From positions 2,976,001 to 3,040,000 of the forward strand of contig OZ242180.1 in the NCBI GenBank assembly GCA_965205485.1: a DNA stretch of 64,000 nucleotides, written 5' to 3'. Within the stretch, counting starts at the first letter, position 1, and the number at the start of each line of letters is the position of its first letter. This stretch comes from Candidatus Latescibacterota bacterium. GTDB lineage: Bacteria; Latescibacterota; UBA2968; GCA-2709665. The position numbers are program-made. Shown piece after piece: positions 27,001 to 39,000 of the stretch.

Positions 27001-30000
27001 AAAGGCTGGGCGAGCGTGTGCGCGAGGGTCTTCCGATTCGCGGGGTTCCCACGTCGGAGCAGTCCCGGATCCAGGCGGAACGCGAGGGTATACCGCTTGT
27101 CGATTTCGCGGAAACCACACGTATAGACCTGACGATTGACGGTGCGGACGAGATCGACCCCGCCTTCAACCTGATCAAGGGCGGCGGCGGCGCTCTGTTT
27201 CGCGAAAAACTCGTGGCCACGGCCAGCCTAAGGGAAATCATCGTTGCCGACGAATCCAAACTCAAGGACCGCCTCGGGGCATTCCCGCTGCCGGTGGAAG
27301 TGGTCCCCTTCGGCTGGCAGTTCGTTCGACTGAAACTCGAGGCTCTCGGGTGTCGTGCAACTCTGCGCGTCCGTGAAAACCGGACTTTCGTCACGGACAA
27401 CGGCAACCACGTTCTGGACTGCGCCTTCGGCGCCATCGATGACCCCGAGGATCTCGAACGACGTATTGCTTCGACCTGCGGCGTCGTTGAGTCCGGCCTC
27501 TTCGTCGGCCTGGCTCACCAGATCGTGATCGGCAAGCCCGCCGGCACCATCGAAGAGCGATACAGACCGCAATGCGGGGTAGACGTAAGACGTAAGACGT
27601 GAGAGTTTGCCGGCCTTGCAAGTTTTCTTCTCAGGCCGGAGGCAAGCTGGAGAAACCTATAGGGCAAGGACTTCATCTACCGTCTAACTTCGGGAAGAGG
27701 GTAGAGGTGAGACGGTAGAGGAAAATCCTTGCCACATGATGCGGCGCCAAGTCAAAAAGGATTGAGCCCGAACACGATGGTCGAACTCAGCCACATTACG
27801 TTACTGCCAGGATAGACAGAAAGTATTTCAAATAGACCGGTGCCGATTGCGTAGAAATCGTCGTTACGGATAACAAACCGAGCGGGCACCCACATCATCT
27901 CCCGTCTCCCGTCTTGCCTCTCCCCGCTTCAAGGAACACAGCAACACGCCAGACGGAAAACTGTTTATAACAAGGGTATTCAATGAGCATCTTCATCGAT
28001 AACGACACTCGAGTGGTCGTTCAGGGGATTACCGGCAACGAAGGATCCTTCCACACGCGTCAGATGCTGGACTACGGCACCCGGATCGTAGCGGGCGTCA
28101 CGCCGGGCAGGGCCGGACACCGCGTCGAAGGAGTACCGGTCTTCAATACCGTCTCCGACGCGGTCGACGCCACGGGCGCGGACACTTCGATCCTCTTCGT
28201 CCCGGCGGCGTTCTCCGCGGACGCGATCATCGAAGCCGCGGATGCCGGAATACGCCTGGTCGTGTGTATCAGCGAAGGAATCCCGGTACTGGACATGGTA
28301 AAGGTCAAACACTATCTTGGCTCGCGCTCCACCCGGCTCGTCGGCCCCAACTGTCCCGGGATCATCTCTCCCGGCAAATGCAAGATAGGAATCATGCCGG
28401 CCGATATTCACAGAGGCGGCAACGTGGGTGTCATTTCCCGCAGCGGGACGTTGACGTACGAGGCGGTCGCCCAACTGACGGCCCTGGGCCTGGGCCAGTC
28501 CACGTGCGTGGGCATTGGGGGAGACCCGGTCATCGGCACCAGCTTTACAGACTGTCTCGATGCCTTCGGACGGGACTCCCACACCGAATGCGTCGTGATG
28601 ATCGGCGAGATCGGCGGCTCGGCCGAAGAACAGGCGGCGGACTACGTGAGAACTTCCTTTACGAAGCCCGTGGTCGGCTTCATCGCCGGCCAGACCGCGC
28701 CCCCTGGCAGGCGCATGGGTCACGCCGGCGCGATTATTTCGGGTGGCAAGGGCACCGCCGAAGAAAAGGTGGCGGCCCTGAGCGCGTCGGGCATTCGGGT
28801 CTGCAGCAGCCCCGCGGACATCGGCGAAACAGTGCTCGTAGCGCTCGGCGGTGATCCCGGGCGGAGCACCGCCGGTACGGCCTGACTTCCACGACGGATT
28901 CCGGACGTTTCGCTATCCTGCGACCTTGGCAATTGTGGGGGCCCGCCTGTCGCGAATTCGGATGAAAATACGCTAAACAAAAGTATTGACATTTGAGAAA
29001 TCCTTATATATCTTCTGTGGAATACCCTGCGGTTGTGCGTTTAATCACGAACCTGTGCGATACACCGGTGGGCTTATGTTAAATTGCTACCGCGTAGTCG
29101 CTTATCATGTACACGACAGGAATGAAGCAGGAGGGCGTTAACGGGGCGCTTCCGGTTACCGGACAGTATTGCCTTTTTTTTATGTTCGAGAGGGGGTGAG
29201 GAATCAAGCAGACTGCGGGGAGTTTTGCAGATTTTAATGCCGGGTTCTTTTTTGGAGCAGTTTGCAGGTGTAAGGTAGTGTGGAGGGGACAAGTCATCTT
29301 CCTAATAAGGAGGTGTTTATGAAGGTGTTCAGGGTTGTCGGCCTGTTGATTCTCGTATTCTCGGTATCGGCATGGCCCGCAGTTGCCCAGGAAGGGAGTT
29401 GGGGGGTCGGCGTGTTTGCGAACTACAACGTGCCGGTCTTCGGTCTGGGCGAGTGGTACGACAACGATTCCAAGTTCGGGCTGAACGCGGCCTACGTGCC
29501 GGCGGAAAACGTTACCGTGGAGCTCGAGTTTCACAGCGGAAACTTCACCGACGGGAGCCTGCTGACCCGGACGTTCATTTGGACCGATGGCGAGGCCCAT
29601 ACCAGCCCGAATGCGTCCAGTAATATGAGCCTGAACAGTCTGCTGGTAAACGCCCTCGTCAGGCTGCGGCAGATCGGACAGCCGTTCACTGCCAGTAGTT
29701 TCGCCCCGTACGTCGCGGTGGGGGGCGGCTTCTACCGGTACAGGAACGAAGTCAGCGGGTTGCTGTGGCCAGGGCAGACTGGAAGCCTCGTCCTCGAACT
29801 GGAGCCGTTCACCGACGAGCGATACGCGCTTGGCGTCAACGCGGGACTGGGTGTCGAGGCATTCGTAATCGACAATGTGGCCGTGGACTTGCGTGCGCGT
29901 TACAACATGATGATAGGGGACCTTCGGGGCCTGGAAGACTGGCAGCTTTCCGAAACCTTCCCCTTGCAGATGCTGGACTTCGGAGCCGGGGTTAAATTCT

Positions 30001-36000: not shown

Positions 36001-39000
36001 GCTGTCCAACTCCTCACTGGTTTCCGGTGCGCTGGCGTTCAACGCAGGGTTCGGTACCATCGGGTTTACGGTTACCAGCTTTCAGACGGAGGAGATGGAA
36101 GTCACCACGCCTACGGCCCCATGGGGTACGGGTACCATGTTCAGGGGCAGCGATATCGCCCTCGGCGCCGTTTTCGCCAAGAAGATGACCGACAAATTCA
36201 TGCTGGGCGGCCAGATTCGCTGGATCCAGGAAGATCTTCACCTCGAGAAGGTCTCTACTCTGGACTACAGTATCGGCACCCATTTCTATACCGGGTACCG
36301 CAGCAGCAGGATCGCCATGAGCTTCCGGAACCTGGGTCCGAACGTCAAGGTGACGGAAGGCGGTTTCACGGCGGTGATGCCCACCACGTACTCCCTTGGC
36401 GGCGCAATGGAGATTTTCGGTCAGAAGGGCGATCCCGGGTACTTCACGCTCTCACTGGAACACGAGTTCGTGACGGACTTCCGGCCGATTACCCGCATGG
36501 GCGGAGAACTCTGGCTCGAGAATACGCTGGCGCTGCGTGCGGGTTACCGTACACATACGGCTCTTGAGAGCTGGAGCGTCGGCGCCGGTCTGAAGCACGA
36601 ACTGCCGGGCGGTCAGTTGATCACGGTGGATCTCTCCTACCACAACGCGGACCTGGGCATCTTCGATCCCCCGTTGCGTCTGTCCGTGGGCGGGACGTTC
36701 TAGGGACGCGATGCGCGGTTATATTAAAGGAGGACGGTCCGCCGGATCGTCCTCCTTTAATATGAGAAGCAGGAAAAAGCAAAAGGAAGAAGCAGAAAGG
36801 AAGAAGGAAGAAGGAAAAGCCCAAAAGCGGGTAAACGGGAGAGGGTAGAGAACCAAACGACACCCCACCACCTGGTGAGACGTAAGCCGGGAGAGGGTAG
36901 AGTTCGCATGCCGTGTAAGGTTTCCTGTCGGGCCGCAAGCGAGCCGGAGGAACAAATTGGCAAGGGCTTCTTCTACCGTCTCACCTCTACCGTCTCCCCT
37001 TATTCATTCGACCGTCTTGCGTCTCCCGTCTCCCCGCCTCTGTGATTTTCTGCAACCAATTCCATCTGTGGGCATTCAAATATTATTGGCAGCAGACGGA
37101 TAGTTTCAACGGCGGCGCTTCCGAATTCAGTTGCGCGGTCCGACGCGTTTGCGCAAACCCGAAACGAGGACGAGTACGATGTTCCGGATCTTACCGCGGA
37201 CGATGGTTCCCTGGCTTGCCGGATTGGCCCTTTTCCTGGCGGGAGGTCGGGCCGATGGAGCCGACGAATCGCCGACTCAAGCCGCGTCTGACACGACCAC
37301 CGTCTCAGCACCCGACCGGGAAGTGCAGCGGGCCGTGCGTGCGTACTGGCCTCAAATGATCGCGGATCCGGCCGGCCGGAATACCCGGATCGGCTACGCC
37401 CGTCTGCTGAAGACGGACCTGGCGGGCGCAAGAGAGGCGTTTCAGTCGGCGCTGTCGCAAAACGACGGGTTTGCGCCGGCCCACTTCGGGATGGCGCTGG
37501 CGTCCTATCGGTCGGGGACGGCGGACGGAGAAAAGGGGAGGTATTCCGAGCAGACAATCTACCATGCCACTCGGGCGGCCGCGCTTTCACCCGGATTCGA
37601 ACTCGTCGATCGGCTCCTGGGACAGTTGTATTTCGACATCGAGGACTACGAAAATTCCGTCGATGCTCACGTGCGTTCTCTATCGGTGGATCGAACGCGG
37701 GACCTGAGCGTACTTCAGGACGTGGTCACGGCCTTTGTCCGGACGGGGGTCTTTGAGGATCTACCCTCACGGGCGCTGGATTCATTGGAAGTAACGACGG
37801 ACGAAGGGCTGCTGTTGCCCGTCGTGGCGCAGGCTTGCGCAAGCCGGGAAGCTCTGGACCTGGCAATGCAATACTATGGTCGCGGTTTTTCCCGTATGCC
37901 GCCCGAGGAACGCCTGTTTTACCAGGATGTGACCCTGATTGCGTCCAGGGAGGAGCTTCTCGCGTACCGGGCGACTGAGGACGATCCCGCGGCGCGACGG
38001 GAATTCCTCGTAAGGTTCTGGTCGGTGAGAGACCCGGATCTGATGACTGCCGTGAACGAGCGCAAGCTGGAGCACTATCGGCGCGTGTGGCATTCGCGAG
38101 CGGCTTTTTCCGAACAGGCGAATCCTTGGGACCGGCGGGGCGAGGTCTATATCCGGTACGGCGCGCCGGATTACCGGTCTACTTCCGGCTCGGTGGCGCC
38201 ACCCTTGCCCGTTTCCGTAGAGAGAATCAAGGAGCGTGTCGCCCACGATATCTACGGGCCGCATGGGATGATCGAGGTCGGCCGGGGGCCGGTGTTTCCG
38301 GTTCGCAGGATGCACGAGGTGGGTCTGGATTTCCCCGCTGAACTGCCCCCGGGTACCGATCAGGGCGAGACTCCCGACGCGCTGGAGATAGAGGGTGCGC
38401 CCGCCCTGGCCGATGAGCCCATGGCGCCTGCCGACATGTCGGAGCTGGATGGAGACAATTACGAGGTGACCCTCTCCCCGAATCGCACGCAGGTGACGGG
38501 TGGGGACTTTATGTCCTATATAAAGTGGGAGTCCTGGGTATATACCGGCGTTGCCGGTGGGATCGAGGTGGTATTTACCAACGAGTGGGGTGGCGGGAGG
38601 TTCGACTTCGCGCCGGTACCCGCCGCTGAATTCGACGAGGGTGCGTTGCGGCGGACCAGCCGGATGGTGAAATTTTCGCCTGCGATGGTGATGAACCGCA
38701 GTATCCGGCAGATGCCGGAGCACTATCTGCCCGGCGGCCGGGAAGCATTCCTGGACTTTTACTACGATCGGGCGACGTTTCGAGGATCCAATGGTAAGAC
38801 GCGGGTGGAGGTCTATTACGGGATTCCGCCGCGAAGCCTGAGCGAGTCCGAATCCCGTGAGCAGCCGGTGTTTCGATTGGGGTGTGCGGTGGCGCTGTAC
38901 GAAGCGGAATCCGGGCAGACGCTGCAGGAAAGCGAAGAGCTGGTATTGCGCACTTCGAAGGAGCTCTATACCGGGAAGGGGACCTTCATTCCAAATCAAC

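Follow-up and report, generated by a model that had tools for sequence, protein, structure and literature searches.

A six-copy cassette encodes a TonB-dependent receptor with a protein bearing a T9SS-type tail and a PorV-family barrel in a Latescibacterota genome

Introduction

In the SusC/SusD (RagA/RagB) systems found in polysaccharide utilisation loci of Bacteroidota, a receptor with an N-terminal CarboxypepD_reg-like domain is followed at once by the gene for its surface partner, and many divergent paralogous pairs occur per genome, each pair being co-inherited. The Oar architecture is that of a TonB-dependent receptor (TBDT) of about 1000 aa with a CarboxypepD_reg-like N-terminal domain, and Oar of Myxococcus xanthus is described in PMC6434023 as a TBDT required for PopC secretion. 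Other surface proteins have tails that are held by a barrel, as is already known for PorQ-PorZ and SprF-SprB. In the T9SS attachment complex of P. gingivalis, a PorV/PorQ-family barrel is coupled with a long-tailed protein in PorQ-PorZ and again in PorV-PorU, and in both cases the tail is retained and barrel-bound according to two reports (PMC10202324, PMC11285876). For SprF-SprB and PorP-PG1035, a further report states that the cognate barrel gene adjoins the cargo gene, and that the barrel is needed for secretion and surface anchoring; there, PorP-like barrels and type B CTD proteins form several such paralogous pairs per genome (PMC9143113). These pairs function in gliding and in adhesion, and no TonB receptor is known to take part. 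In the literature that we searched, no barrel-held T9SS tail coupled to a TonB receptor was found.

Here we describe a cassette from a Candidatus Latescibacterota bacterium in which a TonB-dependent receptor, a secreted cargo protein and a PorV/PorQ-family barrel are encoded together. It shares the order of receptor and surface partner, paralogy and co-inheritance with SusC/SusD, and the combination of barrel and long-tailed protein with PorQ-PorZ and PorV-PorU. However, each of the latter is present once, as a component of the secretion machine, whereas the cassettes number from six to dozens and are linked to TonB receptors. We propose, with a probability of about 0.5, that the cargo is exported by the T9SS, is held by its barrel and acts as a capture protein for its receptor, SusD-like in its working though not a SusD.

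Results

The window is the whole stretch of 64,000 nucleotides that was analysed, beginning at position 2,976,001 of contig OZ242180.1 (C1). Its features of interest, in window coordinates, are as follows.

28986..29014, + strand: sigma-70-type promoter candidate (TTGACA, 17 nt, TATCTT) ahead of the cassette
29144..29181, + strand: hairpin, then a T8 run, within a ~300-nt leader; noticed in the ortholog alignment
29319..30017, + strand: small outer-membrane beta-barrel, 232 aa, OmpA/OmpW-like class (PF13505 39.6 bits, cut-off 28.7)
30048..33173, + strand: TonB-dependent receptor, 1041 aa (CarboxypepD_reg-like N-terminal domain, plug, 22-stranded barrel)
33241..35628, + strand: secreted cargo, 795 aa (signal peptide without lipobox, supersandwich core, Fn3-like domain, T9SS-type tail)
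33307..34746, + strand: cargo core, residues 23-502, galactose-mutarotase-like beta-supersandwich plus long helix, with long inserted loops
34747..35166, + strand: Fn3-like domain, about residues 503-642, from the strand pattern of the AF2 model
35329..35625, + strand: T9SS-type C-terminal domain, residues 697-795, long PorZ/PorU-like class (TIGR04183 20.8 bits, cut-off 23)
35660..36703, + strand: PorV/PorQ-family 14-strand-type barrel, cassette clade (NF033709 159.6 bits, cut-off 90)
37131..39578, + strand: TPR and GWxTD-domain gene (TIGR04514 51.3 bits), a loose neighbour and no fixed cassette part

The four cassette ORFs all lie on the + strand, with gaps of 30, 67 and 31 nt in gene order, and the small barrel starts at an ATG downstream of an AAGGAGG ribosome site. 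By blastp of the window proteins against the full genomic set of 15,105 ORFs, exactly six cargo proteins were found (28-32% identity to the window cargo, E <= 4e-58), together with six receptors, six PorV-like barrels and five small barrels as close relatives. This confirms the genome-wide survey's note in its count of six cassettes, five of them with a small barrel at the front, and in its cargo family of six proteins of 756-842 aa. The cassettes lie at the following contig positions.

C1:530838-537337, - strand: without the small barrel
C1:1053274-1060818, - strand
C1:2285069-2292369, - strand
C1:2581510-2589687, + strand: here a gene for a 221-aa temptin-C/dockerin protein separates the small barrel from the receptor
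C1:3005319-3012703, + strand: the window copy
C1:3174421-3181984, + strand

Relatives were examined as two locus sets, the best-scoring 80 of 164 and the best-scoring 80 of 86, so that linkage may be looser among the remainder. In these two sets, a PorV-like gene lay directly 3' of the cargo for 79/83 and 55/66 assessable cargo ORFs (134/149 in all) and a receptor directly 5' for 75/80 and 58/78. The small barrel, found in 67 of 86 loci, is an optional member. Trees of 83 cassettes agreed closely: 49 of 56 strong receptor splits recurred in the PorV tree with no conflicts and 48 of 56 in the cargo-core tree with one conflict, against 0.04 shared with shuffled labels. Across 31 genomes, PorV and cargo match counts rose together (rho 0.90), and once our organism's own genus was collapsed the remaining 17 gave rho 0.93. 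The cassette genes are an operon-like block, which is copied and passed on as a unit.

The AF2 model of the window receptor (pLDDT 83.8, pTM 0.83) has 22 long strands and large loops at L1, L9 (about 105 aa) and L11. Its plug exceeds the PF07715 cut-off (37.1 versus 23.9 bits), and the model matched the classical TBDTs FusA, FoxA, PhuR and SusC at Foldseek E values of 1e-24 to 1e-21. A TonB receptor profile search of the genome matched 19 ORFs; TonB_C gave 12 matches, 11 of them above cut-off, and the TonB proteins lie outside the cassettes. Assignment of the receptor to SusC/RagA was rejected, with 54.8 bits on TIGR04056 against a cut-off of 368 and the N-terminal part alone matching. SusD itself (PF07980, PF12771) had no match in the genome, and the same profiles matched in B. 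thetaiotaomicron controls. The survey's description of a lineage without SusD holds for this genome and for 22 of 22 genomes of its family, but not for the order, since 17 of 21 genomes of one genus within it have a SusD match.

With M. xanthus Oar the receptor shares its large size and CarboxypepD_reg-like N-terminal domain. However, all six cassette receptors fell below the cut-off of PF25183, which we take to be the Oar-linked family (at most 15.7 bits, cut-off 30), whereas another receptor of the genome, at C1:605782, reached 276 bits. The label "Oar-type" therefore lacks support and, with it, the survey's alternative of a protein export gate, in which the receptor would export the cargo or another protein. 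Such a gate would have the precedent of Oar itself, and the T9SS motor genes GldM (0/1) and GldN (0/31) were not found, by searches that were silent in controls too; we count this negative against the capture reading as well. Nevertheless, the cargo already has an export route, given its T9SS tail and the SprA of the genome, and we regard this reading as highly improbable.

The cargo family comprises 5131 representatives at E <= 0.001 and 204 at 1e-30. Unlike SusD, the cargo is no lipoprotein, as none of the 83 N-termini has a lipobox-like motif, and no SusD Pfam model matched the cargos. The AF2 model of the core (pLDDT 92.8, pTM 0.93) is mostly beta with scattered helices, and the cargo has a recognisable fold: GH94-type supersandwich domains were matched at VIA Z scores of up to 18.9 (8rf9, rmsd 3.4, 257 aligned), with glucoamylase 1lf6 at Z 18.7 and cellobiose phosphorylase 2cqs at Z 18.3. 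The likeness to GH94/GH15/GH65/GH116 N-domains and the galactose mutarotase fold extends over 230-280 core residues, including the post-sandwich helix (Z 15-19, rmsd 3-4 A). Identity is nevertheless 6-12%, about 200 inserted-loop residues are unmatched, and the high-confidence model, in which Fn3 and tail come after the sandwich, contains no (alpha/alpha)6 catalytic barrel. For the Fn3-like region, Foldseek returned the Fn3-containing EphA2, integrin beta4 and EPO receptor, and the closest named Atlas cluster is fn3 for 51% of members.

Six core acids (E187, D215, D216, D267, D304, D314) are retained in 94-100% of 47 near-family proteins, as would be equally expected of an enzyme, which we count against the capture reading. 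If catalytic, as in mutarotases or a GH174 fucanase, the core, exported and held by the barrel, could play the part of SusG and not that of SusD by trimming a polymer for the receptor. Among the weaker fold matches are aldose epimerases (Z 11-14) and the GH174 endo-fucanase with bound fucotetraose (9k1g, Z 13.5). However, the best matches (Z 17-19) are non-catalytic N-domains, no His is conserved in the core, and the same acids drop to about 75-80% in a 127-row alignment, where the near-invariant positions are Gly, Pro, aromatic and tail residues alone. A fixed slot between receptor and barrel in nearly all loci also suits a partner better than one hydrolase among many, and we consider a surface enzyme unlikely. 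As modelled, the core is a carbohydrate-enzyme accessory fold without its catalytic barrel, which we count in favour of the proposed capture protein.

The T9SS-type tail noted in the survey is supported, and by model matches, length and the residue at -6 it resembles the long PorZ/PorU-like class. Among 51 family tails (E <= 0.01), 28 matched the PorZ model (best 5e-11), 28 TIGR04183 and 15 PorU; the cargo match to PorZ is confined to the tail, at model positions 661-756, the body being unmatched. Of the type B models, TIGR04131 showed a weak likeness, to five of the 51 tails, and CHU_C matched 33 of them (window tail 20.8 bits, cut-off 27). None of the six cargos is among the genome's 23 sorting-domain matches above cut-off, and the cargo profile found the ordinary CTD proteins of the genome through the tail region. 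The median distance from the PNP motif was 95 residues in family tails versus 83 in 21 ordinary tails. With the position mapped by analogy, Lys stood at -6 in 5/36 near-family and 2/6 own tails, versus Lys or Arg in 21/21 ordinary tails; distant-group tails kept Lys in 15/15, which we count against the capture reading. A conserved tail Lys contacts PorV (PMC10994853). According to PMC11285876, the tails of PorZ and PorU, which escape cleavage, are longer than the others; the paper also states that no features telling cleaved from uncleaved tails could be found. Length and model matches point to a tail that may likewise be uncleaved and barrel-bound.

A separate, complete housekeeping set is present outside the cassettes, consisting of SprA (TIGR04189 647 bits), PorV and a PorU-like C25 protein (314 bits). 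The cassette barrel might alternatively be a dedicated shuttle, from which the cargo is freed, with or without PorU cleavage, to bind ligand in the medium and dock transiently on the receptor, as the hemophore HasA docks on HasR. A PorU-like protein is at hand, one barrel can serve several cargos, and Lauber et al. expect the affinity of the tail for PorV to fall outside the translocon (PMC10994853), a point that we also count against lasting anchoring. Yet the tails resemble the uncleaved class, and a mere shuttle needs no fresh barrel copy with each duplication, since the 21 ordinary tails of the genome manage without a cassette-clade barrel gene. We judge a released carrier to be decidedly unlikely and retain the barrel-held cargo as the preferred reading.

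The six cassette barrels scored 137-178 bits on NF033709, which matched 11 genes of the genome, nine of them above cut-off, in agreement with the nine PorV/PorQ-like genes counted before. The window barrel falls below both equivalog cut-offs (PorV 70/250 bits, PorQ 68.5/220). Orthology to PorQ was rejected for all six (55-74 bits, cut-off 220), and the housekeeping PorV reached 150.6 bits on the PorV equivalog versus 48-80 for the cassette barrels. The cassette-barrel profile matched F. johnsoniae PorV (6h3i) at E 2e-29, and one branch with support 0.96 split 83 cassette barrels from three non-cassette PorV-family genes. The cassette barrels belong to the PorV/PorQ family, unlike the barrels of SprF-SprB and PorP-PG1035; the PorP family model TIGR03519 had no match in the genome and was silent in the control too.

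The survey had called each PorV "private". A dedicated, co-inherited barrel per cassette is upheld, but strict one-to-one pairing is weakened. Exceptions include extra cargo copies, mainly in Marinimicrobia. Loci L085, L086, L088 and L091 and many metagenome loci contain additional cargo genes that lack a barrel or receptor of their own, two cargos precede one barrel in L100 and L128, and L053 has no barrel. Over 25 clades, tail distances correlated with receptor distances when the barrel was held fixed (r 0.45, p 0.001) and not with PorV distances when the receptor was held fixed (r 0.12, p 0.13); there is therefore no sign of tail-barrel specificity.

Upstream, the promoter candidate is weak by itself, as three sites of this type were observed versus 1.8 expected. 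Its -35 hexamer is unchanged in 9/9 orthologous upstream regions and its -10 hexamer is retained in 8/9. The leader hairpin and T8 run, present in 19 of 83 upstream regions, are a possible attenuator; the leader had no Rfam match and folded no better than its shuffles (z = 1.0). In the small barrel itself loop motifs are conserved, and TIGR04565 gave sub-threshold scores for 18 of 41 members.

Neighbours of the cassettes include DUF6785 proteins, sodium:solute symporters, ceramidase-like, GDPD, Gfo/Idh/MocA and GWxTD genes. A GWxTD/TPR gene lies within 6 kb of four of the six cassettes (P = 0.0007 versus random placement) and adjoins 24 of 83 loci. This clustering, and a family-wide conservation that is mostly structural, would suit a structural or signalling assembly in which the barrel abuts the receptor and carries the cargo as a scaffold, canopy or adhesin, without ligand hand-over. 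Such an arrangement has a precedent in FadL-family BamG, which holds BamH beside BamA (PMC12578637). BamH is a lipoprotein, however, and the cargo is not; moreover, many divergent paralogs per genome and 55 clade-specific aromatic and polar cargo positions fit substrate specificity. We find this assembly improbable relative to the capture of a ligand for the receptor.

Discussion

Under the capture reading, each cassette would build one surface uptake unit. From what is known of T9SS, the cargo would pass through Sec, fold in the periplasm and leave via the SprA translocon, its PorZ/PorU-like tail being taken by the co-encoded PorV-family barrel rather than the housekeeping PorV. The tail would stay uncleaved and the barrel would remain as the membrane anchor of the cargo, as in PorQ-PorZ and SprF-SprB, the precedents for barrel anchoring given in PMC10202324 and PMC9143113. 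Gene order and fold suggest that tail and Fn3 could form a stalk placing the supersandwich core beside the co-encoded receptor. The core might then bind a ligand, most likely carbohydrate-containing and varying among paralogs, and deliver it to the receptor, through which import would be TonB-driven. The small barrel would be an optional fourth subunit.

A glycan substrate is not established, since no glycoside-hydrolase cluster was found in the 7-8 kb flanks examined beside the cassettes; in these flanks, sulfatase and heparinase II/III each occur in 3 of 83 loci, and a single weak GH130-like gene lies near one of the six cassettes. The cassette departs from SusC/SusD in having no hydrolase cluster within these flanks and in adding a co-encoded PorV-family barrel, with a supersandwich, an Fn3 domain and a T9SS tail in its surface partner. 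In its working, the cargo on its receptor would nevertheless resemble SusD on SusC, though it is not a SusD and has no lipid anchor. Taken together, the cassette probably supplies an import channel with a partner for capture at the surface and dispenses with the lipoprotein lid of the Bacteroides solution.

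Gene content and inheritance of the cassette

The window carries four genes separated by 30, 67 and 31 nt, and their ORF coordinates match the place and order given in the genome-wide survey's note:

29319-30017, + strand: small barrel (PF13505)
30048-33173, + strand: TonB receptor, 1041 aa
33241-35628, + strand: cargo, 795 aa
35660-36703, + strand: PorV/PorQ-family barrel (NF033709, 159.6 bits)

A blastp search of the 15,105 ORFs in this genome, a single contig that is 97% complete, confirmed the claim of six such cassettes, five of them with the small barrel, and the nine PorV-family genes that had been counted were all above the cut-off. 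One of the six cassettes includes an extra 221-aa gene, temptin-C plus dockerin-like, between the small barrel and the receptor (L006:3249-3911, an own-genome locus). The small barrel was rejected as a PorT, there being no such NCBIfam match among 41 members, and its profile gave one match, unrelated, to solved structures.

The cargo family was present in 29/30 related genomes, and the conservation of the ORFs in these relatives ruled out a chance or frame artefact. Across the phylum, the cargo profile matched 99 of 140 genomes at E <= 1e-10, many distant ones weakly. The family comprises more than 5000 representatives at 50% identity; 5131 were matched at E <= 0.001 and 204 at 1e-30. Its nearest neighbors in the Atlas are unnamed clusters, mainly of Gemmatimonadota and Fidelibacterota. 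The genome was also said to lack SusD, which held, since neither SusD model matched and the positive controls did. The extension of this statement to the lineage was only partly upheld: none of 22 genomes of the organism's taxonomic family had a match, but in one genus of the same order, 17 of 21 genomes carried a single SusD match beside many cassettes.

Gene linkage was assessed in the 80 top-scoring genome loci (of 164) and in 72 loci drawn from the 80 top-scoring metagenome matches (of 86). In these best-scoring loci, a PorV-like gene lay directly 3' of the cargo in 79/83 (genome) and 55/66 (metagenome) assessable ORFs, and a receptor directly 5' in 75/80 and 58/78, respectively. Most misses concerned an additional (second or third) copy of the cargo lying a few genes off, in Marinimicrobia-type loci; in two loci two cargos precede one barrel, and in one (L053) the barrel is missing. 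Because extra cargo copies are among the misses, the barrel is dedicated to its locus and not always to a single protein, so that the "private" PorV of the earlier note stands for the locus and not as a one-to-one pairing. In the Marinimicrobia-type loci (L085, L086, L088, L091, L097-L123), each receptor and barrel come with 2-3 cargo paralogs, which are separated by a gene for a symporter, GDPD or ceramidase-like protein; an ordinary CTD protein of 330 aa is often encoded between the small barrel and the receptor. In 12 loci of a distant group (L148-L163, e.g., L156:6501-8018), a FadL-like second barrel of ~500 aa follows right after the PorV-like gene. In one assembly cargo and barrel share a 1150-aa frame (L039:7569-11018), whereas they are separate in orthologs; because the cargo match ends at residue 716, the fusion probably stems from a frameshift or an indel in the assembly.

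Thinning the 117 complete cassettes at 95% identity left 83, from which trees were built. The barrel tree recovered 49 of 56 strong receptor splits with 0 conflicts (0.04 with shuffled labels); since such congruence arises from co-duplication alone, it shows only that loss or exchange of the barrel is very rare. Among 31 genomes, which are related and hence not independent, the numbers of PorV and cargo matches correlated with a rho of 0.90, and PorV/PorQ matches reached a maximum of 34 per genome. Receptor, cargo and barrel, with or without the small barrel, are thus a co-inherited three- or four-gene unit.

Fold of the cargo

AF2 modeling of the cargo from a 127-row alignment (pLDDT 92.8, pTM 0.93) assigned residues 23-502 to a galactose-mutarotase-like beta-supersandwich and a long helix after it. 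This core, overlooked by the earlier note because whole-chain TM-scores were low, aligned over 230-280 residues with the N-terminal domains of GH94, GH15, GH65 and GH116 (Z 15-19). Unlike those enzymes, the cargo lacks the catalytic (alpha/alpha)6 barrel and has an Fn3-like domain and the tail instead. The fold list also includes aldose epimerases and a GH174 fucanase (Z 11-14), as would suit a surface enzyme; we regard that reading as unlikely. The core has several conserved Asp/Glu and no conserved His, and chiefly Gly, Pro, aromatic and tail residues stay conserved in the deepest alignment. In the clade of the window paralog, 55 positions are conserved that are not conserved family-wide, and these are enriched in aromatics (20% vs. 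12% overall), as expected if the paralogs' ligands differ.

The cargo profile had no match at E <= 10 among sequences of solved structures, and an Atlas search with the core gave no usable match among named clusters. PorZ (5m11; Foldseek rank 19, probability 0.41) was the sole SusD/PorZ/PorP-type structure in the fold lists, where absence of such structures carries no weight. None of 83 cargo N-termini contained a lipobox.

The cargo tail and its barrel

Of 51 cargo tails, 28 matched the PorZ model (best 5e-11), 28 type A, 15 PorU and 33 CHU_C; the window cargo's tail falls short of both the type A and the CHU_C cut-off, and the genome's 23 standard CTD matches include none of the six cargos. 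Measured from the PNP motif, cargo tails have a median length of 95 residues vs. 83 in ordinary tails. Lys occupies position -6 in 5/36 near-family tails, whereas Lys/Arg is found there in 21/21 ordinary terminal tails of the genome (the 23 matches less two non-terminal ones); tails of the distant group retain the Lys (15/15). Cargo tails are therefore a class apart from ordinary CTD tails. Against solved structures, the best relevant match of the tail profile was a T9SS CTD (8glj) at a non-significant E of 0.4. Among P. gingivalis tails, those of PorZ and PorU, which stay uncleaved, are longer than the others, though that study found no determinant of cleavage (PMC11285876). One conserved Lys bonds to PorV within the translocon (PMC10994853).

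The genome encodes SprA (647 bits), and its best PorV lies outside the cassettes (150.6 bits vs. 48-80 for the cassette barrels). It also has a PorU-like protein (1967 aa), a PorV2-like gene and a BamG-like gene. A scaffold or adhesin role for the cargo, similar to BamG-BamH (PMC12578637), seems improbable to us. No full-length match to PorZ was obtained. GldM and GldN gave no match in the genome, with controls likewise silent; the T9SS possibly operates without the Bacteroidota motor.

Cassette barrels form a distinct clade, split from the three other PorV-family genes with a support of 0.96 (FastTree; long branches). With receptor distances held fixed, tail distances did not track barrel distances (r 0.12, p 0.13; 25 clades), which counts against fine tail-barrel specificity. 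Tail and receptor distances did correlate (r 0.45, p 0.001; 25 clades), which may merely reflect the longer receptor alignment. Models of barrel-tail complexes can pass through likeness to solved PorV-CTD structures.

Two further genes of the window belong to this subject. At 18802-19872, 9 kb upstream of the cassette, lies a further PorV-family gene (best model PorV2, 101.7 of 325 bits), outside the cassette clade. A PD40/peptidase MA/Omp85 protein at 22305-25772 resembles one behind the housekeeping PorV, at the own-genome locus L008:2289-10006 (C1:2714288-2722005), where the genes after PorV encode an inactivated, M6-like metalloprotease with a CTD and the PD40/peptidase MA protein.

The receptor

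The modeled receptor has a plug, 22 strands and large loops L1, L9 and L11, and resembles both classical importers and SusC; it differs from SusC in failing the SusC model TIGR04056. The label "Oar-type" was not sustained, as the receptor does not pass PF25183, which we take to be the Oar-linked model, and another receptor of the genome scores 276 bits. Little also remains of the earlier suggestion that the receptor is an export gate (PMC6434023), because the cargo has a T9SS tail and SprA is present; we consider it very improbable.

Complex prediction of the receptor C-terminal half (mature 497-1015) with the cargo core (1-480), from 83-row alignments of each, scored 0.00 in both runs (mark 0.32) and, using half a barrel and no folded controls, counts neither way. 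The fragments were picked from a mutual-information cluster (receptor 846-884/cargo 131-167), which served solely this purpose. Inter-chain mutual information over the 83 cassettes (effective 49) peaked at z 5.5-6.0 vs. 5.2-5.3 in shuffles, a test without power because the within-PorV control gave no clear contact pattern. Elsewhere on the contig, at C1:3052048-3053679, five tandem TonB C-terminal domains occur in a 993-aa frame.

Leader and neighboring genes

A candidate sigma-70-type promoter conserved in orthologs precedes the cassette, with a leader of ~300 nt (29020-29318). Around 29082-29100 the leader contains a conserved motif of 20 nt and, at 29144-29181, a hairpin with a T8 run, both found in orthologs. 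The motif is missing from the other five cassettes; a similar hairpin occurs in the leader of the cassette at C1:3174421. The hairpin may be an attenuator. Rfam gave 0 matches over the window and the five other cassette loci, and thus no riboswitch to name the substrate.

Neighboring genes encode DUF6785 proteins, symporters, ceramidase-like proteins, GDPD, LacI/GntR regulators and GWxTD proteins, with few sulfatases or lyases; the surroundings are catabolic and not those of a hydrolase-rich PUL. The genome has ~31 TPR+GWxTD-domain genes, and 4/6 cassettes have such a gene within 6 kb (P = 0.0007), e.g., at 37131-39578 in the window. DUF6785/DUF6784 membrane proteins near 24/83 cassettes (e.g., at locus L028:15699-17681) are candidates for the inner-membrane step. 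Word matching against RNA assemblies recovered fractions of 0.35, 0.14, 0.10 and 0.06 of the sampled words in four assembled sponge metatranscriptomes, all from a single study.

Discussion

By analogy with known type IX systems, the cargo probably leaves via SprA and has its tail captured by the co-encoded barrel, as in PorQ-PorZ and SprF-SprB (PMC9143113 and PMC10202324). Cognate PorV-like barrels have been proposed to shield tails from cleavage (PMC10202324). If so, gene order and fold favor a supersandwich core that takes up ligand for the co-encoded receptor. We put the whole reading, a T9SS-exported, barrel-held cargo capturing ligand for its receptor, at a probability of about 0.5. A released carrier is a rival that we rate as rather unlikely, less so than a scaffold and more so than an enzyme.

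Tentatively, we propose a second, lipoprotein-free kind of assistance to TonB uptake, in which a receptor, PorV-family barrel and small barrel would form a stable complex under a T9SS-delivered supersandwich lid. Jointly with this, and just as tentatively, a tail class without the usual basic residue would route each lid to its own barrel; type IX secretion would assemble nutrient transporters, perhaps through a translocon without the Bacteroidota motor; and the system would extend over Latescibacterota, Gemmatimonadota, Fidelibacterota, KSB1 and other Bacteroidota relatives.

The cassette is not described in the accessible parts of PMC10581226 and PMC11205867. Its receptor-uptake and barrel-held-tail halves are each of known kinds; for the coupling of a barrel-held T9SS cargo to a TonB receptor, we found no description in the open-access literature, supplements excluded.

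Uptake loci in genomes are usually located via susC/susD, and phyla with few or no SusD seem poor in such loci despite many large TonB receptors. If the cassette is a SusCD equivalent, it would serve as a marker by which the uptake systems of abundant marine, sponge and sediment bacteria, still uncultured, could be counted and classified. Unexplained PorV/PorQ paralogs would, if this is true, gain a role, the published idea that barrels protect tails would become testable across a series of natural pairs, and type IX secretion would be tied directly to import.
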